A stretch of DNA of 64,000 nt from the sequence record OK040907, one strand, 5' to 3'. The notes below the pieces were generated by a model. The model had not been told where the DNA came from, did not search any database, and saw nothing but the letters and a program-made list of their open reading frames with translations. Source of the stretch: Enterobacteria phage Ac3. How positions within the stretch are numbered: position 1 is the first letter of the stretch; the number at the start of each line of letters is the position of its first letter. Below are positions 1-64,000 of this stretch, in pieces. The translations under genes were made by a program, and so were the position numbers.

Positions 1-674
1 CCAAATCCCGTAAACTGGACTGTTACACCGAGTCTCATCACATTATCCCGCGCTGCCTGAATGGCTCCGATGACGCGAGCAACCTGGTAGACCTGACCCC
101 TGAGGAACATTACGTTGCACACCAGCTCCTGGTTAAAATTTATCCGTCCGAGCCAAAACTGATTTACGCTGCCAACATGATGACTGTATCCACTAAATAT
201 GCTAAACGCAATAACAAAACGTTCGGTTGGATCCGTCGCAAACTGTGGGAAATCGAAAAAAACAAAGAATTCTCTCAGGAAACCCGTAAGAAAATGTCCG
301 ATGCGGTTGCCAACAAGGCGCGCCTGACCTGCCCGCACTGTGGTAAATCTGGCCTGTCTGGTAACATGAATCGTTGGCACTTCGATAATTGCCCGAACCA
401 CCCGAATCCGAAAGTGCGTCCTCCGATGTCTAAAGAACACCGTAATAACATCAGCAACGGTCTGAAAGCAATTATCCTGGAGGAAACCTCTTGCGAATTC
501 TGCGGTATGATCGGCAAGAAATGCGTGATTGCAGCTCACCGTAACTTCTGTAAGAAAAACCCGAACGGCCGTAAGAAAACCGAGAAAACCGGTACTTGCG
601 TGCACTGCGGTAAAGTTACGACCTTTGGCAACCTGAGCCGTTGGCACAACGACAACTGCAAGCACAAACACTAA
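1..674 (+). CDS. HNH homing endonuclease, C-terminal part (5' end outside window)
   Basis: Frame starting at nt 3 reads SHHIIPRCLNGSDDASNLVDLTPEEHYVAHQLL (HNH motif) then three CxxC...W-x-D/N-NC zinc-finger-like repeats; no in-frame stop upstream; E. coli-type codons. Confidence 0.75.
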   Translation, partial: KSRKLDCYTESHHIIPRCLNGSDDASNLVDLTPEEHYVAHQLLVKIYPSEPKLIYAANMMTVSTKYAKRNNKTFGWIRRKLWEIEKNKEFSQETRKKMSDAVANKARLTCPHCGKSGLSGNMNRWHFDNCPNHPNPKVRPPMSKEHRNNISNGLKAIILEETSCEFCGMIGKKCVIAAHRNFCKKNPNGRKKTEKTGTCVHCGKVTTFGNLSRWHNDNCKHKH

Positions 675-2359
675 TTGATCGTAGCAACGGAGAAACGACC
701 CACTTTCTCCATTTTGATGTGCTGACCGTAGTCCTGTGGGTCGTGGTCTTTGTGGCTGATAATGAAAAAGTTAGTATCTTTCAGGCCATCGAGAATTTTA
801 GCGACGTTTTTGATACCTTCGGCGTCGAACGCGCCATCGTACACTTCATCCAGGAACAGGCAAGAGATTTTTACACCAGAGACTTTTTCGGCGATGTCAC
901 GCCAGGTGAACAGGAGGGCGATATCGATACGTGCCTTTTCGCCTTGGGAGAAGGATGCATAAGAGAAATCTTCGCGGCCGCGGGATTTGATAGTTTCGTT
1001 GAATTCCTCGTCCAGGGTGAAAACATAGTCCGCCTCCATAATTTTCAGATAATGGTTGATCTGTTTGTTGAACAGCGGGATGTATTTCTTAATGATCGCG
1101 CCCTTGATGCCGCTGTCTTTCAGCATGTCGGTCAGGATGCCACGGTGGTATTTTTCCATCACCAGGTTGGTTTTAGTCTTCACGATCTTATCCAGCTCTT
1201 CCTGCAGGAGGGCAATTTCGTCCGCGTGGTCAATGAATTCAGAGGAAGCTTTTTCAATGGCAGCTTTAACTTTCTTAGCTTTGTCAACCGTGGTAATCAG
1301 GGACTGTTTCTTGTTACGAATATCGTTCGCCAGAGACTGTTGGGTCTTAATGTTATCACGATATTCGTCCACCAGGACTTTCAGGTTATCGCGGTGGGTG
1401 GACAGTTGTTCAAAAGAGTGGGTGCATTCGCTCACCTTATCTTTAATTTTGCTCACAACTTTATCACCGCTGGACAGTTGAGACAGGCAGGTCGGACACA
1501 GACCGCCCTCGTGGTACATGTTGATAACTTTGTTGTAGCTATCGATTTTGGATTTAATCAGCACGGCCTCCTGGCCAATTTTGTTAAAAGCATCAGTAGG
1601 GTCTTCGTCCAGCACGATGTTGACCAGACGTTCATTCGCTTCCTCGATTTCGCTTTTCAGGGTACGAGCTTCTTTAGCCAGATCGTCGTACATGTTCTGC
1701 AGGCGCGTCAGGTTGTCACCGGTCAGTTTCTTCTGACGTTCTACGTTGTCGTTGTAGATCTTGATCTGTTGGATAATAGAGTCTTTCTTCACATCCAGTA
1801 CCTGGTTCTGAGAGTTCAGTTCACGGATCAGTGCTTTGTTCAGTTTGTCCATCTCCGCCAGGGTGCCAACCTCCAGGAGGTCTTCGACCAGCTTACGGCG
1901 TGCTGGAGTGCTCAGGCCCATGAACGGAGTGTAACCCGCAGTGCCGAGCACAACAATCTGCTTGAAGCTAGCGTAAGACATACCGATCAGCTGTTCGAAC
2001 TCGGCCTGAAAATCTTTGGAAGAGGCAGATTCGTTCAGACGGGTGCCGTTCACAGTGATTTCAAAGACGTTTGGTTTTTGACCGCGTTTGATGTAATATT
2101 TCTTTTCGTCATATTCCATCCACAGTTCTACCAGGAGTTCTTTCTTATTGGTGCTGTTGATCAGCTGGCCTTTCTTAACGTCGCGGAACGGTTTACCGAA
2201 GAGGCCGAAGGTAATAGCCTCCAGCATGGTAGATTTACCGCCACCGTTACGACCAGTGATCAGGGTTTTCTGAACTTTGTCCAGCTGGATATCAACGCCG
2301 TTCTGGCCTACGCTCATAATGTTCTTGTATTTAACACGGTTCAGTTTAAAGGATTTCAT
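671..2359 (-). CDS. 46: gp46 recombination endonuclease subunit (Rad50/SbcC-like ATPase)
   Basis: 562 aa; N-terminal Walker A GRNGGGKST, central coiled coil with CPTC zinc hook, signature FSQGE, Walker B LFLDEV; partner gene 47 nearby; written in E. coli-optimal codons. Confidence 0.9.
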   Translation of the reverse strand: MKSFKLNRVKYKNIMSVGQNGVDIQLDKVQKTLITGRNGGGKSTMLEAITFGLFGKPFRDVKKGQLINSTNKKELLVELWMEYDEKKYYIKRGQKPNVFEITVNGTRLNESASSKDFQAEFEQLIGMSYASFKQIVVLGTAGYTPFMGLSTPARRKLVEDLLEVGTLAEMDKLNKALIRELNSQNQVLDVKKDSIIQQIKIYNDNVERQKKLTGDNLTRLQNMYDDLAKEARTLKSEIEEANERLVNIVLDEDPTDAFNKIGQEAVLIKSKIDSYNKVINMYHEGGLCPTCLSQLSSGDKVVSKIKDKVSECTHSFEQLSTHRDNLKVLVDEYRDNIKTQQSLANDIRNKKQSLITTVDKAKKVKAAIEKASSEFIDHADEIALLQEELDKIVKTKTNLVMEKYHRGILTDMLKDSGIKGAIIKKYIPLFNKQINHYLKIMEADYVFTLDEEFNETIKSRGREDFSYASFSQGEKARIDIALLFTWRDIAEKVSGVKISCLFLDEVYDGAFDAEGIKNVAKILDGLKDTNFFIISHKDHDPQDYGQHIKMEKVGRFSVATIN

Positions 2360-2374
2360 TTTGTATCCAATTGT

Positions 2375-3240
2375 TTAGAGGCTAGAGAATTCTTTTACCA
2401 GGGCTTGCAGGCTAGCTTCGATCGGATAACCATTTTTCACCAGCATTTTACGGAACATCACGTGTTTAGGACGGTTATAGCTGATCCACAGTTCGTACAG
2501 TTTGTCTTTGTTGTCCCAGTGGTAACCTTTGCGACGGCTGGCAATGTGAGCCTTACGAATCTCCGGATTTTTCCAGCTTGCAGCGACAGAGTTGGAAATC
2601 GGCTTTTGATATTTTGAGACGGGCACAGCGGAGCGAAAGGCTTACGAGTGTTGAGTTTGGTGCGTTTCATGGTCAGACCGTTTGCCAGATGCCACTGGAA
2701 TTTCTGTTTAGTTTTGAAGTTATTCAGACGTTCTTTGTTATCCTTACGGTTTTTCGCTACGGAGAAGTATTTCAGTGCGCGTTCACGAGCTGCATTACGG
2801 TTCTGTGGGTTGGAGTAATACTGTTGCAGGCGTTTAGAAATGGTATCGGAAACATCCTGTTTGATAAAAGAGTATTCTGCCGCAATCAGATCAACTTCTG
2901 CCAGGCTGAGGTTTTTATAGGTTTTGCCAGACATCATACGATTCAGCGCGTTCAGCATTTTACCGTTTTTACCTTTTGCCAGGAGGAAGTGTGCTTTAAA
3001 GTGGTTAAAGTGGCTGAGGTTCACCAGGTTCCAGGTAGATTTGAGATATTCCGGGAAGATAGATTTCGGCAGCACGTGATGTGCTTCGGTCTTGCCCGGA
3101 GTCTTAACGGTGCTGTTAACGCTAATGAAGTTGATATAGGACTTAGCGTCTTCCTCAGACAGCGCCAGTTTTTCCACCAGTTCTTTGATCAGGAATTCAT
3201 CGTTGATGTCCAGTTTGAAGTTTTTAACAAAAGATTCCTT
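2375..3240 (-). pseudogene. HNH (Mob-like) homing endonuclease, frameshifted and without a clear start
   Basis: Upstream frame has AHHVLPKS...NLVNLSHFNHFKAH; coding continues in another frame (SWKNPEIRKAHIASRRKGYHWD...) after an apparent 1-nt deletion near 2600; in-frame stop at 3241-3243 with no ATG before GTG 3177. Confidence 0.6.
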
Positions 3241-10412: not shown

Positions 10413-10883
10413 TTAATCATGTGTCCACACCCCATCGGTATTTGACCAAAGTCGCTGATTATCTGATCCTCGCCACAGCTTTTTGGTCGGAAGATTTTTC
10501 TCATACTTCCCATCAATAATAACATCAACATATTTAAGCATTTCTAGTTGTTTAATATCTTCAAACTTATATCCTGTCCACAACCAAATGCTTTTATTGG
10601 GATAAAGATTTTTAATAGTTTGAACCACAGAGTGAATCACGTCTCTGTTATCAGGATAAAGAGGGTCACCTCCGGTTATAGTTAATCCTTCTATATAATC
10701 ATTATTCAAACATTCAATCAATTGTTCTAGTGTTTCACCAGTGAATGGAATACCATTTCTAGCATTCCATGTTGATTTATTATAACACCCTTCGCATTTA
10801 TGCAAACAACCTGTAACGAAAAGAACGACCCTGCATCCAGGGCCATTCACAAAATCACAGGGATAAAATCTATCGTAATTCAT
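10413..10883 (-). CDS. nrdG: anaerobic ribonucleotide reductase activating protein NrdG
   Basis: 156 aa, Cys-rich radical-SAM-type N terminus, directly downstream of nrdD. Confidence 0.85.
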   Translation of the reverse strand: MNYDRFYPCDFVNGPGCRVVLFVTGCLHKCEGCYNKSTWNARNGIPFTGETLEQLIECLNNDYIEGLTITGGDPLYPDNRDVIHSVVQTIKNLYPNKSIWLWTGYKFEDIKQLEMLKYVDVIIDGKYEKNLPTKKLWRGSDNQRLWSNTDGVWTHD

Positions 10884-12697
10884 TGGTGTTTAACCCTATG
10901 CATGATTTCTTTATTTTTACCGAGATTAAATCCGCGCTCGTTCGGATTTCCCAAATAACCACATGTTCTTCTTATTGTGTTCATCTTTTTAGGATCAGTT
11001 TCTCCACAAATAGAACAAACAAATCCGTTTTCAGTAGGAGTCATTTCATGGGTACTTCCACATGTAAAACATTTATCTACTGGCATATTAACACCAAAAT
11101 AATCTAAATGTTGTGCGGCATAATCCCATACAGCCTCAAGACCTTTTAAGTTATTTTTCATATCAGGAAGTTCAACATAAGAAATGTGACCACCTGTCGC
11201 AATGAAATGATATGGCGCTTCACGAGAAATCTTTTCAAACGGAGTAACATTTTCTTCTACTGAAACGTGGAAACTGTTAGTGTACCAGCCTTTATCAGTA
11301 ACATCCTTTACACTTCCATATTTTTCTGTATCAAGTTTACAGAAGCGATAGCAAAGGTTTTCAGCAGGAGTAGAATACAAACTAAAAGCAAACCCAGTTC
11401 TTTCAGTCCACTGTTTAAGATGAGCATTCATTTTAGTTAAAATTTCTTGTCCAATATCACGACCGATAAGAATATTCAATTCGTGAATACCAATGTATCC
11501 TAAAGACACTGAACTTCTACCGTTTTTAAATAACTCAATTATATCGTCATCGGGTTTAAGACGAACCCCGAATGCACCTTCTTGGTAAAGAATAGGAGCA
11601 ACAGTAGCTTTAACTCCTTTTAAGGAACTAATTCTACACATCAAAGCTTCAAAACATAAATCCATTCGTTCATTGAACAATTCGATAAATTTCTGTTCAT
11701 TGAGCTGTGTTCCAATATAAGAATCTAATGCGATACGAGGAAGATTCAGTGTTACAACACCGAGATTATTACGTCCATCAAGAATTTCATTGCCAGTCGA
11801 ATCTTTCCATACGCTCAAGAAACTACGACAACCCATTGGAGAAACAGGAACAGATGAACCAGTGATAGCTTTATTGTTCTTAGCTGAAATAATATCAGGA
11901 TACATCCTTTTGCTTGCACACTCTAAAGCAAGCTGCTTAATATCATAGTTCGGATCGTCTTTATAAAGATTAACACCTTCTTCAACAAACATAACAAGCT
12001 TAGGGAAAATAGGAGTTATCCCATCACGACCAAGACCTTTAATACGATTTTTCAGAATTGCTTTCTGAATCATTCGTTCAGTCCAGTCAGTTCCTGTACC
12101 AAATGTAATTGTTACAAAAGGTGTTTGTCCGTTTGAACTAAAGAGAGTATTTACTTCATATTCATAAGCTTGGAATGCATCGTATACATCTTTTTCTGTT
12201 TTAGATTGAGCATAATTTAACGCATCAGCGATTTGCCATTTTTCTGCATCCTCAATATGTTTTGCATAGGTGCGTTTAACATAAGGAGAAAGTACTTTAT
12301 CTACATTAGCAAAAGTCGTTCCGCCGTATTGATGGGAAGCAACCTGTGCAGTAATTTGTGCCATAATTGCAGTAGCAACACCGATTGATTTAGGAGTTTC
12401 AATCTGTGCATTACCAAGCTTAAATCCGTTCTCAAGCATTCCTTTTAAATCTACTAAACAACAATTAGTAAATGGAAGAGCAGGGGAATAATCAATATCA
12501 TGGAAATGAATAATTCCGCTTTCATGCGCTTTCATAATAAAAGACGGGACCATATTTTTGGCAATGTGTTTAGACACAATACCAGCCATAAGGTCCCGTT
12601 GAGTTGGAAAAACACGAGAATCTTTATTAGCATTCTCGTTTAAAAGGTCTTTATTAGTTTTATGAATCAATCCTTCAATTTCTTTTTCAATTGTCAT
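10880..12697 (-). CDS. nrdD: anaerobic ribonucleoside-triphosphate reductase NrdD
   Basis: 605 aa; C-terminal glycyl-radical motif RTCGYLG and Zn-ribbon cysteines; ORF is continuous (no intron). Confidence 0.92.
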   Translation of the reverse strand: MTIEKEIEGLIHKTNKDLLNENANKDSRVFPTQRDLMAGIVSKHIAKNMVPSFIMKAHESGIIHFHDIDYSPALPFTNCCLVDLKGMLENGFKLGNAQIETPKSIGVATAIMAQITAQVASHQYGGTTFANVDKVLSPYVKRTYAKHIEDAEKWQIADALNYAQSKTEKDVYDAFQAYEYEVNTLFSSNGQTPFVTITFGTGTDWTERMIQKAILKNRIKGLGRDGITPIFPKLVMFVEEGVNLYKDDPNYDIKQLALECASKRMYPDIISAKNNKAITGSSVPVSPMGCRSFLSVWKDSTGNEILDGRNNLGVVTLNLPRIALDSYIGTQLNEQKFIELFNERMDLCFEALMCRISSLKGVKATVAPILYQEGAFGVRLKPDDDIIELFKNGRSSVSLGYIGIHELNILIGRDIGQEILTKMNAHLKQWTERTGFAFSLYSTPAENLCYRFCKLDTEKYGSVKDVTDKGWYTNSFHVSVEENVTPFEKISREAPYHFIATGGHISYVELPDMKNNLKGLEAVWDYAAQHLDYFGVNMPVDKCFTCGSTHEMTPTENGFVCSICGETDPKKMNTIRRTCGYLGNPNERGFNLGKNKEIMHRVKHQ

Positions 12698-13817: not shown

Positions 13818-14138
13818 TTATAGCGTAATCCATTCTCGTACTGTCTGAGTTACTACACGTTCATGGGGCTCGACTAGTTCAACAGTCGGAACTGCATAAT
13901 ACCAGTCAGAATGATAAGAACCTGACCGAGATTCATTTACCGCTACATGTACATTATGTTTTGGACTAAAGTAAACACACTGACGATATTGACATTTACC
14001 ATCTTGCACCCAGTCTTCTATTTCGACAGGTTTAAGATAATCGGAAAAATCGAAATCATAGTTTTCCGAAAATGCATCATGGTCTTCAATGATTTCGCTC
14101 AGAACTGCATCAACATCTAATTTATTTTCAATAGTCAT
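13818..14138 (-). CDS. hypothetical protein
   Basis: 106-aa ORF. Confidence 0.5.
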   Translation of the reverse strand: MTIENKLDVDAVLSEIIEDHDAFSENYDFDFSDYLKPVEIEDWVQDGKCQYRQCVYFSPKHNVHVAVNESRSGSYHSDWYYAVPTVELVEPHERVVTQTVREWITL

Positions 14139-14148
14139 TTTTCACCAA

Positions 14149-14319
14149 TTAGTTGCGCAGCTTATTCAGTTCCTCGTCATCGATCCAAGACTCCAGACCG
14201 GACGGCAGAGCACATTCGATCTCCCACAGGAGTTCCTCAATTTTCTGCAGGCGATCCAGTTCCTCAGCCGGGATGGTCACCATGGACGGTGCACGGCTTA
14301 CGTTAATGTCATAGATCAT
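14149..14319 (-). CDS. small acidic hypothetical protein (E. coli-optimal codons)
   Basis: 56 aa MIYDINVSRAPSMVTIPAEELDRLQKIEELLWEIECALPSGLESWIDDEELNKLRN; below the 60-aa ORF-track cutoff; island bounded exactly by its start and stop codons. Confidence 0.5.
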   Translation of the reverse strand: MIYDINVSRAPSMVTIPAEELDRLQKIEELLWEIECALPSGLESWIDDEELNKLRN

Positions 14320-14321
14320 AT

Positions 14322-14537
14322 TTACCCCAATTTAACCATACAATCGCCGTATTTCCACTTAGAAATAGACTTTTCACCATTAGAATAATAAACTTCGAGT
14401 TTAGCACGATTATTTTTAATTTGAATAACCTTGGCTGTCATCAAAGTTCCATACCCATAATAAACTGCAACTTCATCACCTACATATACCGCGCTTCCGC
14501 GGTAATCATGAATATAGTCAGTTCCTTCGAGCATCAT
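14322..14537 (-). CDS. hypothetical protein
   Basis: 71-aa ORF. Confidence 0.5.
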   Translation of the reverse strand: MMLEGTDYIHDYRGSAVYVGDEVAVYYGYGTLMTAKVIQIKNNRAKLEVYYSNGEKSISKWKYGDCMVKLG

Positions 14538-22588: not shown

Positions 22589-22616
22589 ACTTTGTGAAAA
22601 ATTTTTGAAATAAAAA

Positions 22617-22634
22617 AGGGAGCCCGAAGGCTCC
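22617..22634 (-). terminator. rho-independent terminator
   Basis: hairpin GGGAGCCTTCGGGCTCCC followed by TTTTT on minus strand, just after the NTase stop. Confidence 0.55.
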
Positions 22635-22637
22635 CTA

Positions 22638-23648
22638 TTACTTATAGTAGGAGCGGTGGTTCTCCAGGTAAACTTTTTCCAGAAAGTCATCCCAGAAACC
22701 CATGTCAACCTTTTGCTGCATGCCATTCTTGGATGCTTCCGTGCTCGCAGCCTCCACCTGATCAACTACGTCCTCGAGGAATTCCTGCACGGTTTTGAAC
22801 GGGTGCTTGCCCAGTTTGACATCCAGGATAAACGGCGCATCCTGCAGTGGGTAGATCAGGTCGCCGGTTTTGTAAATTTCCAGGAGCTGCAGGCCACCGC
22901 GGCATGCATGGGACAGAGCTTTCCAGTCGATGCCTTCGTTTGCCTCTGCTTTGCGGGCGCGTTCGCCGTATTCAGCATCCAGTTTATTCAGGGATTGTTT
23001 CAGTTCGATCAGGCTCAGGGTAGTCTGATATTTACGACCCAGCACCGTATAGAAAGTTTGCGGGCCGGTTTTTTCGTGGTTGTGAAACACCCATTCACAG
23101 AATTCGTTTTCCGGCAGGCGGTGTTTGATATCTTCGATTTTGGTACGGCGTTGACCCTGAGTGCCGTCTTCGCGATAAACGTTGCGCTGGTCCGGGATCT
23201 GATTCACGACTTTCAGGACGTCGCGCAGAGCGGCCAGACGGGAGCCCTTAACACCATATTTAGAGGCTTGTTTGCGTACATAGCCCAGGTAAGATTTCAT
23301 ATTGGTAGTGTAGAAGCGGCTGCGGTTGTCCTGAATGAATTTCCAAACGTCAGGCAGATCGCTCTTAACCACCAGTTCTGGCGGCGTATGCAGCATGTCG
23401 AGTGCCACGGTCTCACCGTCCGCAGCCAGTTTGAAAAAATACTTGAGGCTATACAGTTCGTGGTCGATGTCATCTTTGGTATTCTTGCTAGAGGTATTGT
23501 TGGTGTTTTTAGACATGTGTTCTTTCACGTTGCCGATCAGAATGTCACGTGCCGGTGGCACGAAGATCTCTTTGAAGTCGACATCGCTTTCCGGGGTGGA
23601 AGTGCCGTACAGGTGGCTGCCAAAGTAGGATTTCATCACAGTCTTCAT
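22638..23648 (-). CDS. Pol-beta-superfamily nucleotidyltransferase
   Basis: 336 aa; N-terminal GSHLYGTSTPESDVDF (GS...DxD NTase motif) with later acidic residues and helical C-terminal region; E. coli-optimal codons; start overlaps upstream stop (TAATG). Confidence 0.65.
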   Translation of the reverse strand: MKTVMKSYFGSHLYGTSTPESDVDFKEIFVPPARDILIGNVKEHMSKNTNNTSSKNTKDDIDHELYSLKYFFKLAADGETVALDMLHTPPELVVKSDLPDVWKFIQDNRSRFYTTNMKSYLGYVRKQASKYGVKGSRLAALRDVLKVVNQIPDQRNVYREDGTQGQRRTKIEDIKHRLPENEFCEWVFHNHEKTGPQTFYTVLGRKYQTTLSLIELKQSLNKLDAEYGERARKAEANEGIDWKALSHACRGGLQLLEIYKTGDLIYPLQDAPFILDVKLGKHPFKTVQEFLEDVVDQVEAASTEASKNGMQQKVDMGFWDDFLEKVYLENHRSYYK

Positions 23649-24109
23649 TATTCAGCTTTGTATTCGATCACCGGACACACTTTCGCTTTGCGCGCTTTCA
23701 GGAACTCAACAATGATAGATTTCTTCGGTTGGATTGGCGGCAGGCCTTTGTAAGCGCGATCGATGTTTTCAACGTGCAGCGCGTAATCTTTCTTCCATTT
23801 GTAGTCTTTGTATTTCTCACGCAGGTGCGCCGGAATCACGAAGGAGCCGATAATCAGGAGAACCACCAGGAGTGCCAGAATGAACGCGGATGGCAGGAGG
23901 GTCCACAGGCTACCGAAGATCAGCCAGCGCTGCAGGGATTCAGCACAGATAATAGTCAGACCAACCAGGATGGCACAACCGAAGATGGAAACGAAAAACG
24001 TCGGGATGGCGATAGACCAGAAGTACGCGCACAGGGTTTTAGGGCGCTGCCACTCGTCGTTAAACAGTTTGAACAGCTTATAGTGCCAAGAGTTTTCATT
24101 AATGATCAT
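23648..24109 (-). CDS. small membrane protein coupled to the NTase
   Basis: 153 aa, 2-3 hydrophobic helices then basic tail; AAGGA SD; E. coli-optimal codons. Confidence 0.6.
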   Translation of the reverse strand: MIINENSWHYKLFKLFNDEWQRPKTLCAYFWSIAIPTFFVSIFGCAILVGLTIICAESLQRWLIFGSLWTLLPSAFILALLVVLLIIGSFVIPAHLREKYKDYKWKKDYALHVENIDRAYKGLPPIQPKKSIIVEFLKARKAKVCPVIEYKAE

Positions 24110-28083: not shown

Positions 28084-28514
28084 TTATTTCGGTTTACCTT
28101 CCTTCACGAAGTCTGGGTACGGATAAAAGCCAGAGTAGAAACCTTCGCCTTTGTGGTTGATACAACCTTTGTTGGAACAATAGCACCAGTAATCGAAATC
28201 GCAAGCCATTTCGTCGTTGCACAGGGCGAAAACGACCGGCCATTTACATTTTTCACAGTGCGCGTTTTTCAGGATGGAAGTCTGGGATACCGCCAGGTGA
28301 CTTTCAGGCAGTATTCCTCCACATGCTGTTTGCGACCTTTCTTGTCGATGAAGGTGTATTCAACGAAGGTACCGATGTAATCTTTATCCACGTCGTGCGG
28401 AGAGTTGATCGGGCACTTAGTACGGCAGATGCGTTCCCACTGACGAATGATTACAGCCTTGTTTTTCGGGTCGAACGGGTGTGGATAATGTACTTTTACA
28501 GCAGCGGCTCCCAA
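28084..28514 (-). pseudogene. Cys/His-rich putative zinc-binding domain, disrupted by frameshifts (probably once fused to the upstream macro domain)
   Basis: Coding in E. coli-optimal codons switches frame near 28292-28297 (..KVTW / AVSQTSILKNAHCEKCKW..); its start has no ATG and overlaps the macro gene stop, where re-inserting one G would fuse the frames. Confidence 0.5.
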
Positions 28515-28963
28515 TCAACGATTACGATTTCCAGTTTGGAAGAATAGGTGTCCAGGATACCTTCAATGATGTCCCAGTTGCCTTTACCGATGCCGGCGCC
28601 GATGCGCGGCATGTAGATGGTTGGTTTGATCAGTTTGTTTTCACCGAATTCGTTCAGCTCCAGCATACAATTCATCAGCGCAGAATATTCAAAGTTTGGG
28701 CCCGGCTGGAACTGAGTGTACAGGTTAAAACAGTACGCTTTGTGGGTGCGAAAGTACTTTTCATACACGGAGTAGCTACCCAGTTTAGTCACGTCGCCCC
28801 ATTCGGTCTGCAGCTTGTCAGCTTCCAGGATTTTCGGAAACGCTTTGGTCAGCTGACCGGCTACACCCGCTTTCATGGTATGGAAGCAGTTACAGCCGTG
28901 AGCGATGTTTTTACCTTCGGCAAACAGCGCTACGATATCGCCTTTGATGTATTTGACAATCAT
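28496..28963 (-). CDS. macro domain protein, TARG1/OARD1/DarG-like (putative ADP-ribose hydrolase)
   Basis: 155 aa; KGDIVALF...HGCNCFHTMKAGVAGQL...MPRIGAGIGKGNWD matches TARG1-family macro motifs; E. coli-optimal codons; ATGA overlap with upstream gene. Confidence 0.7.
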   Translation of the reverse strand: MIVKYIKGDIVALFAEGKNIAHGCNCFHTMKAGVAGQLTKAFPKILEADKLQTEWGDVTKLGSYSVYEKYFRTHKAYCFNLYTQFQPGPNFEYSALMNCMLELNEFGENKLIKPTIYMPRIGAGIGKGNWDIIEGILDTYSSKLEIVIVDWEPLL

Positions 28964-29301
28964 CTAGTACTCAATCCTCGATTATAAGAATCTACCAAAC
29001 GGTCAACCATTGAATGACAAGCGGCTTTATCTTTCTCCTCCGCAACTGAACATTCTAAAGTATTCCACTTTTTAGCATATCGTTTTAATAATGTATCGTT
29101 TTTGTATCTGCTTGATTTATCTCTTTCTCCGTCTTTGTATGCATATATTAATTTCTGTGCAAATTCAGCTTGGCATGCTTTATTTTTCCCACAATAATCT
29201 GCCGCAGTGCGGTTTACATACTCTCTAATTTCAGTATATGATGTATCTGCTAACGCAGAAAATGAAATTAATCCTATACATAAAACCAAAATTTTAGTCA
29301 T
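28960..29301 (-). CDS. secreted/periplasmic hypothetical protein
   Basis: 113 aa with signal peptide MTKILVLCIGLISFSALA. Confidence 0.55.
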   Translation of the reverse strand: MTKILVLCIGLISFSALADTSYTEIREYVNRTAADYCGKNKACQAEFAQKLIYAYKDGERDKSSRYKNDTLLKRYAKKWNTLECSVAEEKDKAACHSMVDRLVDSYNRGLSTR

Positions 29302-30367: not shown

Positions 30368-30688
30368 TTATTCTTTAAATCTAATCAATTTATTCATAGA
30401 CTTTGAAACTTCTGCACGAACCTCATGTAAGTTTTTAAGCTGTTCAAGACGCTGCGTATAGTAAGCAATTTCATCTTCTTCGAGACAGTCCTGTGAATCT
30501 TCTTTAAGATAACGCGCATAGTCCTGGAAAGCTTTACGGACTACTTCCTGGAAGTCATCAAGACTTTGAATTTTCTTAGGAGCGGCAGATACACGACGAG
30601 GTGCAGTATAATACTCATAACCAAACCCTGCGCTTAATTGAGCCATTAGTATTTTTCCTCTGGTTGGAACACTGCGCGACAAGCCCAC
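30368..30688 (-). CDS. hypothetical protein
   Basis: 106-aa ORF. Confidence 0.5.
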
Positions 30689-30963
30689 ATACTAGCTTCT
30701 TTGAGTTTAGACTTGGCCTTTTGAATGCAGTCAATAGAATTCATAGCTTCATCTAACTTAGAGTCTGACACTTCTTCATTTCCACCTAATGTGCTGTAGA
30801 TTTCAATATACTCGTCTTCTAAAGCCTTTAAAATAAGTCCTAAACGAACTTCAGCGTCTTTGATAGCATTCACTTTACCGATTTTCTCTTCAGTATGCGG
30901 CTTATAACCTTTAATGTCTTCAATCATATTTGACTTCCTCACCAGTACATAAATCATATTCAA
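30646..30963 (-). CDS. hypothetical protein
   Basis: 105-aa ORF. Confidence 0.5.
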
Positions 30964-31141
30964 CTAAACGAATAGGTTCATGAATGCCATATCCTTGAAC
31001 AGAAATTTCTGTCGTAGGATAAATTCCATCAATATCACCCATATTCCAGGCTTCATTAAATTGCTGTTCGCCTGAATTACTAAACCACTCGGCGAAAGCA
31101 TTTAGCACATCTTTAGAACCTTCAATAATTATCTTTGCCAT
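30920..31141 (-). CDS. hypothetical protein
   Basis: 73-aa ORF. Confidence 0.45.
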   Translation of the reverse strand: MAKIIIEGSKDVLNAFAEWFSNSGEQQFNEAWNMGDIDGIYPTTEISVQGYGIHEPIRLVEYDLCTGEEVKYD

Positions 31142-31503
31142 TACAAACTCTCAGTAAAGGTACGAGCGATAACGTCGCGCTGCTGTTCCGGAGTCAGAGA
31201 GTTAAAGCGAACTGCATAACCGGATACACGGATGGTCAGCTGCGGATATTTTTCCGGATGCTTAACTGCATCTTCCAGAGTTTCACGACGCAGAACGTTA
31301 ACGTTCAGGTGTTGACCACCTTCAATTTTAACTGTAGGTTGTGTTTCAATTTCAATTTCACGGGCATGCAAACCGTAGAAAATTTCTGGGTCTACAAAAG
31401 AGTCCTCTTTAAAGGTTTTAGAGACAATAATTCGTGCTTGAATACCATCTTCAAAATAAATAGTACCTTTATGTGTGCCTTCAAGAATTTGATATGCTTT
31501 CAT
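31141..31503 (-). CDS. autonomous glycyl-radical cofactor (GrcA/YfiD-like)
   Basis: C-terminal ~60 aa [61 protein letters not shown] matches E. coli GrcA including the RVSGY glycyl-radical motif; 3' half has E. coli-like composition, 5' half is phage-like. Confidence 0.8.
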
Positions 31504-31510
31504 ATAAACC

Positions 31511-31840
31511 TCAATTAGAAAATAAATTTATCCAAGATTGTTCTTTAATTAAAAATGGCTCAGAATCATATGCCATTAAACTTTGGGTGATTAGTCCTTT
31601 AAAAGGTCCATCAATAAATTCCATGGTAAAATATGGAATTTTATTCATTAACTGCGCGTTAGGAGCAGTGCACAAAACTCTGCATCCTTTGAATACGCCT
31701 TTTTGTAATTTGTATTGCTTGGGATAAAATTCGCTCAAAATGTTATTATTTGCCAAAATTTCAAAATGATTCACCAATTTATTTTTAATAGTTTTTGGCG
31801 AAAAATAAAGATATTCGAAAAGCTGTGTGTCTGTCATCAT
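31511..31840 (-). CDS. hypothetical protein
   Basis: 109-aa ORF. Confidence 0.5.
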
Positions 31841-32427
31841 TGCATTCCAATCACAAAAAATTGAGGACGAACTGTTTCACCTGTTTCAGCATTATAGCTT
31901 CGACAACAGTGTTGTACCGTTTTAATATGGATATTGTAAATCTTATCCATATCAGGAGCTTTAATAGGTTCGTCAATTATGTACAAGATACGAGAAAGCG
32001 ATAACCCACGGAATTTATGACCTTCATTACCGATAAAACTACGGACAGAATCAGTAAATAAACGGAATCGAATATCATCGCTAGAATAACGAGAAAATTC
32101 TTTTTCAATGTTGCCAGCAGAAATTTTAGCGTAAGCTGAAGTATTAGAAAGAACAATAACTGTTCCGCCATCATACAGCCAATTAGCAGCAAAGTTAGTC
32201 ACAGCAATTGATTTACCGGATTGACGTCCACCATCTATACGAAGTGTGCAGTACTGTTTGAGCACATCTTCCATTGGTGGAAGATAATCATTCTTACAAA
32301 TTTCTTCTACTCTAGCATCAGAATGGTGTGTAAAAGCATTCATCAGGGATAGATAAGGACCAGTTAAAAATGTTCTCATTTTATTCTCTCTAAGTTTGGG
32401 CCATTCCGTGGCGCATGAATTGTCCAT
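31837..32427 (-). CDS. P-loop NTPase-like protein (start may be internal)
   Basis: GGRQSGKS Walker A-like and IIDE Walker B-like motifs. Confidence 0.5.
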   Translation of the reverse strand: MDNSCATEWPKLRENKMRTFLTGPYLSLMNAFTHHSDARVEEICKNDYLPPMEDVLKQYCTLRIDGGRQSGKSIAVTNFAANWLYDGGTVIVLSNTSAYAKISAGNIEKEFSRYSSDDIRFRLFTDSVRSFIGNEGHKFRGLSLSRILYIIDEPIKAPDMDKIYNIHIKTVQHCCRSYNAETGETVRPQFFVIGMQ

Positions 32428-32520
32428 TTCTGTATTTACCCATTACCGCACTTGGGCTCGACCTTATCACAGGTTGGCGGGAATCCCTCATAGAATCATG
32501 AGGTCCAGGTTGTTCCCATA

Positions 32521-32994
32521 TTATTTGAACGATTTAACGTACTGAATAGAACCCTTACTATTCACAAAGGCAATTTTACCATTTTTATTATACATGGTAG
32601 CAGTACGCTGATAACCATAGGTTTGTTTACCAGATTGATAACCAACTAATGCAAAATTATCTTCACCCATTTTATTCTGTTTAGCGCGAATGCGTTCATG
32701 ACCATGTGCCATAAGAACCTTAGCATCACCAGTTGCAATGGATCGACGAGTTTTTTCATCTTCAACTGCATTAACAAAGTCGTCAAATGAATCAAATTTA
32801 GCATGAGATTTATTATACAATTTTCCATCTACTGCATAATTATATCCCTGTACATCCATCTCAACTTCTGTACCATCATCCAATACAGCAGTAATTTTTT
32901 GACCTTTTTTAAATTTCAAAAGATCAGTAAAAGATTCAGCAATAATTTGAGAATTAATAGCTGCTTCAGTGATAAATTCTTGATATGTTTTCAT
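32521..32994 (-). CDS. internal head protein with capsid targeting sequence
   Basis: 157 aa starting MKTYQEFITEA, the conserved N-terminal targeting sequence of T4 internal proteins; adjacent to denV as T4 ipII/ipIII. Confidence 0.65.
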   Translation of the reverse strand: MKTYQEFITEAAINSQIIAESFTDLLKFKKGQKITAVLDDGTEVEMDVQGYNYAVDGKLYNKSHAKFDSFDDFVNAVEDEKTRRSIATGDAKVLMAHGHERIRAKQNKMGEDNFALVGYQSGKQTYGYQRTATMYNKNGKIAFVNSKGSIQYVKSFK

Positions 32995-33003
32995 GGGTTT
33001 CCT

Positions 33004-33420
33004 TTAAATGTAAATATTTTTACCGTAATACTTATACCAATGTGGTTTCATTAAAATTTTTTCATCAAGTCGTTGTTGACTCAATTTAATAGCTGATTTG
33101 CATGGATTATAATCATTTTTCCATTCTATTGGAATATCGCTGATGTCAGGAACTTCAGTATCTTTTATACTGAACCCGCGTTTTAAGCATTCCGTTATAA
33201 TGTCTAATTGACGCTTTCGCAAAAATTCTAACTTATCGTAAAAGAACGTAACATGACCAGAACCTAAAATAAACTCGGAAGATATTTTAAAATCTTTAAC
33301 GCGCTTACCGTTTGCCACATGCTTACGAACTATACCAAAAACACGCGGCAATTCACGGTATTCTGCGATTAAATGTTGATCAGCAAGTTCAGATACTAAA
33401 GTCAAATTAATACGAGTCAT
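33004..33420 (-). CDS. denV: endonuclease V (pyrimidine dimer DNA glycosylase)
   Basis: 138 aa [29 protein letters not shown]... matches T4 DenV. Confidence 0.9.
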
Positions 33421-35289: not shown

Positions 35290-35683
35290 TCAGTTCTGGC
35301 TTTTGCAGCGGCTCTCTTTTACGAATTTCATGATTTCATCAAATTCGTGAGCCGCCAGCTTCAGCTGGTGTTCTTTCTTGATTTTCTTGCACTGCGCTTT
35401 CCAGTCACGAACACGTTTGCGATAATGACGACCCTGGTACCAGTAACCGATCCAGTTGATCGGCACGAGCAGGAGCGGAACCACCAGCGGCAGGATCAGG
35501 GTAGCGCCGAAGATTGCGCCGGATTCGATATCAGTCATAACGTCGATAACCATACCGGCAATAACCAGAATAACAAAAGAGACCACAACCACCGGACCGA
35601 TCAGCACGTCAGTGGAGATAATTTGGCGCTTCAGTTCGTATTTCAGTGGTTTGCTCGGCAGGTACAGAGACGGTTTGGACATA
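35290..35683 (-). CDS. membrane protein (same family, E. coli-optimal codons)
   Basis: 130 aa from ATG 35683 (MSKPSLYLPSK...), two hydrophobic helices, basic tail ending ..ESRCKSQN; ORF track extends to 35703 through native sequence. Confidence 0.55.
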
Positions 35684-39329: not shown

Positions 39330-39404
39330 TGGCGGACATGCATGGATTCGAACCATGGACCAATTGATTAACAGTCAACTGCTCTACCACTGAGCTACAC
39401 ATCC
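39330..39404 (-). tRNA. tRNA-Asn (anticodon GUU)
   Basis: Manual cloverleaf: D-arm TAGCTCAGTGGTAGAGC, anticodon loop CTGTTAA, T-loop TTCGAAT, CCA encoded. Confidence 0.8.
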
Positions 39405-39408
39405 AAAT

Positions 39409-39495
39409 TGGTGGGGAGTGATGGAGTCGAACCACCCGAGTCGCAATGACAATGAATTTACAGTCCACACCGCTACCTCTACGGGATAACTCCCC
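39409..39495 (-). tRNA. tRNA-Tyr (anticodon GUA), type II with long variable arm
   Basis: Acceptor GGGGAGT/ACTCCCC, anticodon loop CTGTAAA, T-loop TTCGACT, CCA encoded; D-arm register slightly irregular. Confidence 0.65.
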
Positions 39496-39507
39496 TAATT
39501 CATAATT

Positions 39508-42012: not shown

Positions 42013-42709
<697 letters not shown>

Positions 42710-42710
<1 letters not shown>

Positions 42711-43435
42711 TATAGTACCTTTAGTGTATTTTTAATTTTAGAAAAAAGTTCTTCAAGAGAACCATCGTTTGTAATTACTAAATCACCATCACGAATTGGC
42801 AATCCAGCTTCTGTAATATGTGTATCATTGGATTTTTGACCAGGACGAACTACATGAATTACTGTAGCACCCATCGCCCTAGCCGCATCCATTTCATGAT
42901 CTTGACGAGTATCAGAAACGATATAATAATCATAACCTGAGTTAAATTTATCAAGATAATCTAAAGCAAATAATTTTACCCAGTACATGCGGTCGAAGTT
43001 ATTAACAATCAAATCCGTACCTAGGGCTTGCATCAGACGACGGACTGACCATTGATCTTCAATATTATTTATAACGTCAATAATCTTGTTAAATGCTACG
43101 GAATTAACTGATTCTTTTCCTTCGTCATCAAAAACAAACACACCTTTAATTGGGCTTTTACCATTAAGATAGCAAAATGCTTGTTCCATAATCGTGATTA
43201 CTTCTAATTTAGTCAGATTTAAATTAGTCTCACGATCATAGTCAATTCCTTCAAACTCTTTACGGGTTAAGCAAGGATAGTCAGTGTTTGCCGCAAATAC
43301 TCCCCATGCATAAGCCAATGCATCCTTAATAGGACCAGCAAGTTGGTATTTAACTGCAGAATAATTGCTCATGATAAAATCAGCAGTAGTATCTTTTCCA
43401 CTACGCTTTACACCGCTTAAAAAGATTAGTTTCAT
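42710..43435 (-). CDS. 1: deoxynucleoside monophosphate kinase
   Basis: 241 aa from ATG 43435 (MKLIFLSGVKRSGKDT P-loop) with GGAGA SD; ORF track starts at an upstream M. Confidence 0.9.
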
Positions 43436-43484
43436 GTGTTTCTCCTCAAATTTAATTAAGATTATAACACACAAAACTGAAGCA

Positions 43485-44015
43485 TTAAACTTCCGCTATA
43501 ATTTTTCCATCTTTTTCTACTTGAAAATAGGTGTAAGGAATCGTTGCAGTACATACTAAAGCCGGGTCTGAATCTTCTGTGTAGCTAAATTCTACTTCAG
43601 ATAGGTCAGAAACCCAAGGCTTATAAAAATTTATTGACATCACTATTTCAGTTTTGCTATTATCTAAGATGTAAAGCGTAATGTACTCAGGACCTGTTTT
43701 TTGGGCAGTATTTTCACCTGTAAGATAGTTGCTAGTTCCTAGCATCCATTCATACATTCCTATCCACGACTTAAGTTCTTCATCAACTATAAATCTCACA
43801 ATGAGTGGATCATACTCAAATGTAACACCTGGACGTTGTGCTCGGCCCAGTCCAAACGGCCCAGTCACGGTATCAGTAACAGGTATTCTAATTCCTGGAA
43901 TAGGAACTGACTGAGCATTTAAAGTAAAAGCAGATGTAGTATTACTATGTGGTATTGATACTACAAAGTTAGTTGTATTTGCTTGGTTAAAAATTTGTTG
44001 CAGAGCTTGCGACAT
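43485..44015 (-). CDS. 3: gp3 tail tube terminator / sheath stabiliser
   Basis: 176 aa from ATG 44015 with GAGGA SD; gene order 3-2-4 as in T4. Confidence 0.85.
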   Translation of the reverse strand: MSQALQQIFNQANTTNFVVSIPHSNTTSAFTLNAQSVPIPGIRIPVTDTVTGPFGLGRAQRPGVTFEYDPLIVRFIVDEELKSWIGMYEWMLGTSNYLTGENTAQKTGPEYITLYILDNSKTEIVMSINFYKPWVSDLSEVEFSYTEDSDPALVCTATIPYTYFQVEKDGKIIAEV

Positions 44016-44121
44016 ATATTCCTCATAATGCTTTATAACTGTTGGTGGTATAATGGGTCTAAGTCCCTTCCATTCAATTTCATTTAGAACAAACAACAGA
44101 AAAGAATGGAAGATAATAGAA

Positions 44122-44946
44122 TTAGATATTTGACCAGACTTTGTTTGCAGAGAAACGTTTTCCTTTTGAAACGAACTGCTGAAGTGGCATTAACACAACG
44201 TTCGCCCAGTCTTTCGGGGCGATTTCAACAAGGCTACCCATAATATTACCGGGTATATATGCCTTAATCATTTGATCTGCACCCCTAAATCCTTTCACTT
44301 GACTCCAATCAATTTTTAATTTCGTTTTATTAGTAATAGTAGGTGTATTTGCATATTGCTTTAAAAGCTCTTCTAGGAATTGCTGACGAGCTTTAGGTGG
44401 AATATAGTGCAAGTTTAATCCGTACATTAAATTATGCTTACCTAAACCAAGGTAAATTATCAAAGGAAATTTATCCCAGTAAGGAAGAGTTTCCTTGTGT
44501 TTAGCATCATAAGCAAAAGCATATATTCGCCCCGGCTGCGGGCGAACAACTTTATGTCCTTTTACTTGCTTAATAGTTTCGGCAAACCATTTTCTGGTTT
44601 TATTATTAATTGCTGCACCTTCATTACGAATTTTATCGCGCAATGTTTGTCTGAATGAATTTATCATAAGCAGTTGTCTTTCTTGCTTATTGAGCTTATT
44701 CATTGGTTTTGATTCAAGCTTTTGAATCTTTTCAGCCGTTTTAATTCCTGAAGCATATTTTGACATTGCTGAAGTAAACGTAGAGTATTTGATTCCTCTT
44801 TCTTCAGCAAATTGCTTTCCTGTCATTCCTTTTGCTTTGGCCTTTTTATATTCAAGACCTATCTGAATCCATTTCTTTTCGTTTAATGATTGCTTAACCT
44901 TTGGAACTTGGGGTGTGCTTTCATTAATTATTTGAAAAATAGCCAT
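44122..44946 (-). CDS. 2: gp2 DNA end protector
   Basis: 274 aa, size and position match T4 gp2. Confidence 0.85.
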
Positions 44947-58046: not shown

Positions 58047-59599
58047 GTAACAATACATATCAGCACGTATCAAATGAATCAAAATATGTTAAATTCGATC
58101 CAGTAGGATCGAATTTTCCTGACACTGTCACGACAGTGCAGTCTGCATTATCAAAAATAAGTAATATCGGCGTAAATGGTATTCCTGATGCAACTATGGA
58201 AGTTAAAGGAATAGCAATGATTGCGTCAGAGCAAGAGGTTTTAGATGGAACTAATAATTCTAAAATCGTTACACCAGCTACATTAGCAACAAGATTATTG
58301 TATCCAAATGCTACTGAAACTAAGTATGGTTTAACGCGCTATTCAACAAATGAAGAAACATTAGAAGGCTCAGATAATAATTCATCAATAACGCCGCAAA
58401 AACTGAAATACCATACTGACGATGTGTTCCAAAATAGATATTCGTCTGAGTCATCAAACGGGGTTATTAAAATATCATCTACACCTGCAGCTTTAGCTGG
58501 AGTTGATGATACTACGGCAATGACTCCATTAAAAACGCAAAAACTTGCAATAAAATTAATTTCACAAATAGCTCCTTCCGAAGATACTGCATCAGAATCT
58601 GTGAGAGGTGTAGTTCAATTATCTACTGTTGCGCAAACTCGTCAAGGAACTCTCCGCGAAGGATATGCAATTTCTCCGTATACCTTTATGAATTCTGTTG
58701 CAACACAAGAATATAAGGGTGTTATACGTTTAGGAACACAATCGGAAATTAACAGTAATTTGGGAGATGTTGCAGTAACGGGTGAAACGCTAAATGGTCG
58801 AGGAGCTACTGGTTCTATGCGTGGAGTAGTTAAATTAACGACGCAAGCCGGTATTGCCCCTGAAGGTGATAGCTCTGGTGCATTAGCATGGAACGCAGAT
58901 GTAATTAATACTCGTGGTGGACAAACTATTAATGGTTCTTTAAATTTAGACCATCTTACAGCAAACGGAATTTGGTCGCGCGGCGGAATGTGGAAAAATG
59001 GCGATCAACCTGTTGCCACTGAAAGATACGCGTCCGAAAGGGTTCCAGTTGGAACTATTATGATGTTTGCTGGAGATTCAGCACCTCCGGGTTGGATTAT
59101 GTGCCACGGCGGAACCGTGTCAGGAGATCAATATCCTGATTATAGAAACACAGTTGGAACGAGATTTGGTGGCGATTGGAATAATCCTGGCATTCCTGAT
59201 ATGCGAGGTCTTTTTGTTAGAGGAGCGGGCACCGGCGGTCATATTTTAAATCAACGAGGACAAGATGGTTATGGGAAGGATAGACTTGGTGTAGGATGTG
59301 ATGGAATGCATGTTGGTGGTGTTCAAGCACAACAAATATCATACCATAAACATGCTGGTGCCTGGGGGGAAAATGGAAATAACAGAGGTTATGCACCGTT
59401 TGGCGCATCTAATGGCAATGGATATTTGGGCAATGGTAAAAGCGCCGACTGGGACAACCATTTGTTCTTTACTAATGACGGATTTGAAATGGGTGGTCCT
59501 CGTGACTCGTTCGGCACGTTAAATCGCGAAGGATTAATTGGTTATGAAACTAGACCATGGAATATATCATTAAACTATATTATTAAAATTCATTACTAA
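58043..59599 (+). CDS. 12: gp12 short tail fibre
   Basis: 518 aa, matches T4 gp12. Confidence 0.9.

Positions 59600-62840: not shown

Positions 62841-64000
<1,160 letters not shown>

Follow-up and report, generated by a model that had tools for sequence, protein, structure and literature searches.

The conserved 3′ block of the phage gene vs.6 has very probably been overwritten by chromosomal grcA of Escherichia coli

Of the spare-part proteins that take the place of a damaged glycyl-radical domain, only two are validated, YfiD (GrcA) and Y06I, the latter from phage T4 (PMC8683613). According to the same source, the activating enzyme of pyruvate formate-lyase (PFL) puts a glycyl radical on Y06I, which then associates with O2-cleaved PFL in a complex and so restores its activity (PMC8683613, citing Wagner et al., 2001). 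In an early comparative study of vs.6, the gene of this protein, a Pfam match was noted and a role in nucleotide metabolism was guessed (PMC1524935). Exchange of DNA inside a gene shared by phage and host is best described for psbA and psbD of cyanophages, where host-phage intragenic recombination left a patchy G+C content (Sullivan et al., 2006; PMC1484495). Here we analyze vs.6 in a stretch of 64,000 nucleotides (nt) from Enterobacteria phage Ac3 (record OK040907), which as a whole is termed the window, and position 1 of which corresponds to position 32001 of the phage RB51 record. The 363-nt gene is 100% identical to positions 63141–63503 of RB51 (NC_012635.1), and RefSeq names its product, in RB51 and in T4 alike, autonomous glycyl radical cofactor GrcA. 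From work on T4 the gene is thus already known, as are its family and biochemical activity. What is added here concerns its origin: it is very likely that vs.6, coding for a cofactor of the GrcA/YfiD kind, is an old phage homologue whose conserved 3′ block was overwritten by grcA of E. coli.

The host-like part of the gene is sharply delimited. A base-by-base comparison of nt 179–353 of vs.6 with nt 200–374 of E. coli grcA gave an unbroken identity of 175/175, and over nt 179–363, that is up to the end of the gene, the identity to grcA of E. coli genomes is 98.4%. This tract encodes the whole PFL-type glycyl-radical domain. Its identity to grcA is 99% or higher for 5156 of 5426 complete E. coli genomes, many of which match it without a single difference. 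Both identity and composition switch abruptly at gene nt 178/179; no nucleotide-level match to grcA was found upstream of nt 179, and no homology to the grcA region past the vs.6 stop. The breakpoint was tested with three-sequence informative sites, where RB51 served as the query, E. coli as the host parent and Karamvirus as the native phage parent: 9 host-like and 63 phage-like sites lie on its left side, 44 host-like and one phage-like on its right side (Fisher p = 5e-22). As to the donor, the 3′ end of the paralogous gene pflB agrees with the tract at only about 80% of positions, and for this reason grcA is taken as the source, while pflB and tdcE were ruled out. Over a comparable span the tract agrees with E. 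coli at 171/171 positions, and E. coli grcA itself agrees with another Escherichia species at 169/171, with Citrobacter amalonaticus at 158/171 and with Salmonella at 142/171.

Composition follows the same boundary. Codons 1–59 have a GC content of 0.33 and a GC content at third codon positions (GC3) of 0.19, codons 61–117 of 0.50 and 0.42, respectively; GC3 of E. coli grcA is 0.42 in both its halves, equal to that of the tract, and neighbouring phage genes have 0.21–0.31. All five leucines of the tract are encoded by CTG and all three prolines by CCG; in eight genes of the phage neighbourhood these codons serve for 5 of 132 leucines and 7 of 56 prolines, respectively. Since E. coli grcA is uniform in composition, and the host-like GC3 and codons are confined to the tract in vs.6, the transfer is read as directed from host to phage. 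The preliminary description of this DNA, made from its letters alone, had seen in the gene a GrcA/YfiD-like cofactor whose C-terminal ~60 residues match E. coli GrcA, with an E. coli-like 3′ half and a phage-like 5′ half, and these observations are borne out by Pfam, YfiD and PFL matches, by 60/60 identical residues (Vs.6 61–120 against GrcA 68–127, RVSGY included) and by the GC3 values of 0.42 and 0.19. The nucleotide alignment that it had called for placed the junction at nt 178/179; the identity over the 3′ half, far from being low, is complete over 175 bases, and the glycyl-radical motif is present.

It might be supposed that the 3′ half of host grcA was joined by illegitimate recombination to an unrelated phage open reading frame (ORF), which is what the preliminary description literally implied when it spoke of a chimera, and the abrupt change at nt 178/179 together with the lack of any NCBIfam model matching the 5′ half alone would fit such a fusion. 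It is nevertheless quite unlikely. Phage N-terminal halves (a profile of 10) align end to end with bacterial GrcA N-terminal halves (a profile of nine) with an hhalign probability of 95% and E = 3.8e-8, over 61 columns at 28% identity; the phmmer alignment reaches Vs.6 residue 22 (residues 22–120 align to YfiD 28–127), and the two-part architecture recurs in distant phage lineages, there with a C-terminal block (C-block) that is not host-like. Thus, of the proposed capture of host grcA, the part that stands is that the 3′ half is host DNA; it is not fused to a phage-specific 5′ part, which is a diverged GrcA N-half (hhalign 95%).

In phages the full-length gene is old. Its protein has tblastn matches in 1591 phage records, and the 5′ part is 89% identical to that of Mosigvirus and 74% to those of Jiaodavirus and Karamvirus. 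The C-blocks of Karamvirus, Slopekvirus, Pseudotevenvirus, Krischvirus, a Morganella phage, Aeromonas phages and T5-like phages code for an identical or almost identical series of residues and have a GC content of 0.38–0.48; at the nucleotide level they are 69–83% identical to E. coli grcA, and their nearest relatives among 82 bacterial grcA genes compared are 72–85% identical. Because no closer bacterial grcA was found, the Slopekvirus, Karamvirus, Krischvirus, Pseudotevenvirus, Aeromonas and T5-like versions were treated as native. As distant lineages have the two-part gene with a C-block unlike that of the host, the full-length gene predates the host tract, and therefore the host event is regarded as a gene-conversion tract and not as a gene fusion. 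The tract begins and ends where strong conservation of the block does, at places where short runs of identity would permit crossovers.

One of these homologues has an unusual annotation: in Morganella phage vB_Mm5 (537–1190) it is given as 217 residues, with about 95 extra N-terminal residues, and an HNH endonuclease gene comes next. The added length could reflect a true fusion or a start called too far upstream.

The encoded protein matches Pfam Gly_radical (PF01228) with E = 2.2e-18, YfiD (PDB 6owr) with E = 4.6e-42 over Vs.6 residues 22–120, and the C-terminus of PFL (PDB 1h16, residues 697–759) with E = 4.8e-26. Its small size, its RVSGY radical domain and its GrcA-specific N-terminal half, which is absent from PFL and was recognized in Vs.6 by hhalign, place it with GrcA/YfiD (TIGR04365, IPR011140), at a score under the equivalog cutoff that is considered below. 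Because Vs.6 is identical to Y06I at 118 of 120 residues and has an identical radical domain, the mechanism reported for the T4 protein is assigned to it by orthology, as a prediction from sequence. Host PflA, the radical-SAM (S-adenosylmethionine) PFL-activating enzyme, would remove a hydrogen from G95 of the RVSGY loop; Vs.6, now carrying the radical, would dock on host PFL whose C-terminal radical domain had been cut off by oxygen at G734, stand in for the lost domain, and let the conversion of pyruvate to acetyl-CoA and formate resume. Under microaerobic or fluctuating oxygen, the fermentative supply of acetyl-CoA, formate and ATP might in this way be kept going in the infected cell.

Such repair of host PFL was one of two uses suggested in the preliminary description, and it agrees with the activity published for the T4 orthologue Y06I (PMC8683613). 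The second was service to anaerobic ribonucleotide reduction by the phage; in its full form this reading has Vs.6, activated by NrdG and not acting on host PFL, provide a spare radical domain for the phage's own NrdD. The phage does carry nrdD (window 10880–12697; RB51 42880–44697) and nrdG (window 10413–10883; RB51 42413–42883), as had been noted; the nucleotide-metabolism role was guessed from the Gly_radical match (PMC1524935), and all glycyl-radical enzymes are prone to the same O2 cleavage (PMC8683613). Yet, BLASTP of Vs.6 against this NrdD gave nothing (best E = 9), no NrdD chain occurs among the 33 PDB sequence matches of Vs.6, among which PFL has E = 4.8e-26, the radical domain is literally the PFL-type grcA sequence of the host, and the published activity of the T4 protein is on PFL with the PFL-activating enzyme (PMC8683613). 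With no sequence similarity and a radical domain of PFL type, the NrdD role is unsupported, and we regard it as highly unlikely.

A different objection is that no recombination took place at all, so that the whole gene was captured long ago from an enterobacterium and its 3′ half was preserved by constraint on the protein. The C-terminal 60 residues are indeed almost invariant across phage and bacterial homologues, and for this reason protein identity proves nothing and synonymous sites have to decide. These are not protected by such constraint: other phage homologues coding for these residues differ from E. coli grcA at 17–31% of nucleotides, vs.6 at 0 of 175, and the tracts of coliphages and Klebsiella phages differ exactly as their hosts do (87% identity), which makes preservation by constraint scarcely credible.

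The Klebsiella case is an independent one. Jiaodaviruses, members of a sister genus (Klebsiella phages Shinkou, Nispero and AM_K3), carry vs.6 with the N-half 74% identical to that of RB51, and their C-block, with a GC content of 0.56, agrees with K. pneumoniae grcA at 164–166 of 171 positions (96–97%), vs. 147–149 of 171 (86–87%) for E. coli. Over roughly the first 100 nt it does not differ from the K. pneumoniae allele compared, the Klebsiella-specific residues L77 and E81 lie within the tract, and the 5′ junction falls in the same codon as in RB51 (breakpoint test, p = 2e-17). The tracts of RB51 and Jiaodavirus are 87% identical, which is the distance between their two host genes. Since the tracts differ as much as the host genes do, co-divergence without repeated copying is excluded, and at least two independent host-to-phage events can be regarded as established from these sequences.

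Both types of tract are widespread. The 3′ half of E. coli grcA is matched at 95% identity or more by 638 phage records, all of them starting at grcA nt 199–202; 106 records, all from Klebsiella phages, are 95–99% identical to K. pneumoniae grcA, and both tract types are also present in metagenome-derived viral contigs (L104–L109 and L129). Two of the phage genes depart from the usual form. Escherichia phage OES_C-2 has a 6-nt deletion at vs.6 codons ~51–54, by which one tandem copy of GAAATT (EI) is lost, so that the protein has 118 residues; its 3′ end is the most E. coli-like, at 184/185. In Escherichia phage vB-Eco-KMB39 (OR539219.1, 59730–60147) vs.6 lies in two pieces over 418 nt instead of 363 and is annotated as two coding sequences (CDSs); it may be interrupted, duplicated or subject to an assembly problem. 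On the bacterial side, grcA of K. aerogenes NCTC10006 (LR134122.1) was corrected for the comparisons; its CDS is cut short by one A too many in a homopolymer (GGAAAAAATACC), which almost certainly arose in sequencing.

That E. coli grcA received its 3′ half from a phage, or that the shared tract is an artefact of contamination or misassembly, is of negligible probability, as nothing specific speaks for it beyond a generic possibility attached to any shared tract, whereas E. coli grcA is uniform in composition, and conserved ung-grcA synteny and a sequence typical of the species were seen across 80 bacterial genomes. It is the phage gene whose composition is mixed; its tract is in frame, the junction is shared by about 750 independent phage genomes, T4 included, and the tract is present in metagenome-derived contigs as well.

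The events behind the conversion can be outlined as follows. T4-like and T5-like phages would long have carried a full-length, diverged grcA homologue of their own, and in the lineage leading to Tequatrovirus and Mosigvirus its conserved 3′ block, of at least 175 nt, would have been overwritten by chromosomal grcA of E. coli. The route may have been homologous recombination or short-patch gene conversion during infection, presumably by an exchange with host DNA fragments that the phage recombination machinery carried out, and a selective advantage could have contributed. The crossovers would lie in the few conserved bases at the edges of the block, TTGAAGG at the 5′ edge and CGTACCTTTAC(T)GA at the 3′ edge. 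In work on T4, plasmid-borne markers are routinely rescued by the phage.

Several facts weigh against conversion by the host or restrict how far it reaches. T-even phages degrade host DNA early; moreover, the native phage block and host grcA share only about 76–83% identity and would make a poor pair for recombination, and for both reasons exchanges with the chromosome should be rare. Nor does the tract follow the host throughout. A Salmonella-type tract was not found, since identity to S. enterica grcA stays within 90% for all phage records, and there is no Citrobacter-type tract, the best phages being of E. coli type at 92.3%, which is the distance between E. coli and C. amalonaticus; Tequatroviruses isolated on Yersinia or Salmonella have the E. 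coli-type tract, and those Slopekviruses and Karamviruses that infect Klebsiella are without a Klebsiella tract. As to the protein, the match to TIGR04365 (E = 1.4e-45) scores 154.6 bits, under the curated equivalog cutoff of 170, which is missed because the N-half has diverged, and the biochemical function rests on the T4 orthologue through a second-hand account (PMC8683613). The tract of Mosigvirus tp13 is at best 98.3% identical to any of the 5426 E. coli genomes, and three of its four differences are private to the phage, occurring in no E. coli genome; for this reason they look like mutations that arose after the transfer, and they give no proof of a separate E. coli donor allele for Mosigvirus, a candidate that was set aside. 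Tequatrovirus and Mosigvirus may have acquired the tract once or separately.

The comparison of the two genera bears on the age of the tract. Tequatrovirus and Mosigvirus are 66–79% identical in the flanks of the gene, 89% in the N-half and 98–99% in the tract, and synonymous differences number 10 in the N-half vs. 2–4 in the tract (Fisher p = 0.03), which suggests that the tract is younger than the split of the two genera or has been refreshed since. One may ask if the phage gene evolves in concert with its current host, ~175 nt of near-perfect homology being a standing target for repeated conversion by grcA, so that the block would record the principal host genus and might be kept host-exact by selection for fit to PflA and PflB. 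This is hinted at by the two donor genera that share one junction, by the seemingly younger age of the tract than of the rest of the gene between Tequatrovirus and Mosigvirus, by at least six combinations of the four variable sites at the 3′ edge of the tract among close relatives, and by the R73 CGC polymorphism that is common to some E. coli alleles and some phages. A further hint comes from an uncultivated large phage contig of human-associated origin (IMGVR_UViG_3300008607_000007, L124), in which the vs.6 C-block contains a 53-nt run identical to Haemophilus parainfluenzae grcA. Taken together, repeated conversion is a tentative idea, and the odds are rather against it.

Within the same 53-nt run the siblings of that contig, L122 and L123, have six synonymous differences; the run in L124 may be a third host tract, a short one, in a phage of Pasteurellaceae. 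Close to vs.6 there is also a sign of mosaic exchange between phages: about 270 nt in the interior of vs.8 (~31990–32260) are 90–98% identical between RB51 and Mosigvirus phages, and the adjacent sequence is 40–80% identical.

The features of the locus are collected in Table 1. According to the RB51 annotation, vs.6 is flanked by vs.7 and vs.5 within the e-denV-vs-regB-tk early region; it is a stand-alone ORF of 120 codons with its own Shine-Dalgarno-like sequence and start, and has separate genes on both sides. The one-base overlap of its stop with the start of vs.5 suggests that the two genes may be translationally coupled. A Shine-Dalgarno-like GAGAG at 31148–31152, six bases upstream of the vs.5 ATG, could be the ribosome-binding site of vs.5, and this might be a reason for the 3′ edge staying phage-type. 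A scan of positions 30600–33100 for promoters and terminators gave counts no higher than those in shuffled sequences, and a hairpin inside the tract (31307–31321, plus strand) was rejected as a chance match.

Table 1. Features of the vs.6 locus, in window coordinates.
Feature	Position	Strand	Description and basis
vs.6 CDS	31141..31503	minus	120 residues and TAA; autonomous glycyl-radical cofactor; ORF, RB51 identity, Pfam and PDB matches
Phage-type 5′ part	31326..31503	minus	diverged homologue of the GrcA N-half; gene nt 1–178, codons 1–59 and first base of codon 60
Host-derived conversion tract (very probable)	31151..31325	minus	gene nt 179–353, codons 60–117; equals E. coli grcA nt 200–374
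RVSGY glycyl-radical loop	31216..31230	minus	residues 92–96; radical glycine G95 at 31219–31221; aligned to GrcA and the PFL G734 region
Phage-type 3′ tail	31141..31150	minus	codons GAG AGT TTG vs. E. coli GAA AGC CTG (all synonymous), then TAA
vs.5	30920..31141	minus	downstream gene; ATG overlaps vs.6 stop by one base (TAATG); marks 3′ limit of host homology
Shine-Dalgarno-like GAGG	31509..31512	minus	5 nt upstream of vs.6 ATG, overlapping vs.7 stop; putative function

Elsewhere in the window, which has a GC content of 36%, there are islands with a GC content of 0.50–0.58 at positions 1–3193, 14114–14372, 22604–24104, 28127–28982, 35293–35682 and 58937–59532, covering, among others, nrdC.11/RB32ORF096c, tk.3/tk.4 and e.4 of the RB51 annotation; they are probably the recoded islands with which the preliminary description had contrasted vs.6. 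The islands within 19000–43999 gave no megablast match to any E. coli genome, and therefore, in contrast to the vs.6 tract, they do not represent DNA taken recently from E. coli. In the same interval no second segment near-identical to all E. coli genomes was found, and the only other resemblance was a weak one of tRNA genes. In the tRNA cluster a segment at ~39345–39499 is 84–90% identical to tRNA-Tyr and tRNA-Thr genes on some E. coli plasmid records of ~100 kb, which are possibly phage-plasmids.

Nothing is added by this analysis on what the protein is, and it is the evolutionary detail that may merit a short note. The tract is direct natural evidence that T-even phages exchange DNA by homology with the chromosome of the host. 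For two large groups of therapeutic phages it provides a simple sequence marker from which the host genus can be read, and, together with grcA, it offers an easy experimental system in which host-to-phage gene conversion could be measured. The nucleotide identity of vs.6 and grcA was not found in the literature searched, much of the older T4 literature lying outside its reach, and priority is not claimed; the host-exact tract and its Klebsiella counterpart are possibly an unreported example of gene conversion from a host to a lytic phage.

Among the systems described so far, the closest to the gene analyzed here is vs.6 of T4 (Y06I; NP_049730.1), which has the same position in the order vs.7-vs.6-vs.5, differs at two of 120 residues, and contains the same host-like tract with the same junction. 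The two residues are P54 and H73 in T4 and T54 and R73 in RB51, so that the T4 tract has one difference from E. coli grcA (R73H), where the RB51 tract has none; the third base of codon 118 differs as well. E. coli GrcA (YfiD, 6owr) is likewise a stand-alone protein of ~14 kDa, with identical C-terminal 60 residues, 175 identical nucleotides and a homologous N-half; the phage protein, in contrast, is seven residues shorter, about 28% identical in the N-half and under the equivalog cutoff, and its gene lies in a phage early-gene cluster, whereas E. coli grcA lies between ung and eamB. With the C-terminal domain of PflB (1h16, 697–759), the domain that Vs.6 would replace, it shares the RVSGY loop, but PflB is an enzyme of 759 residues and its DNA is about 80% identical to the tract. 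The cyanophage genes psbA and psbD are the nearest parallel for the manner of origin, as they too are phage copies of host metabolic genes with segments exchanged with the host, and what marks a mosaic of the psbA type is seen also in vs.6: a supported breakpoint, a donor-like composition and an independent case with a different donor. Unlike in the cyanophages, the exchanged part of vs.6 forms one block with sharp borders and 100% identity to the host, its carrier is an enterobacterial T-even phage that is strictly lytic and degrades the DNA of its host, and the tracts left by two host genera at one and the same junction can be told apart.

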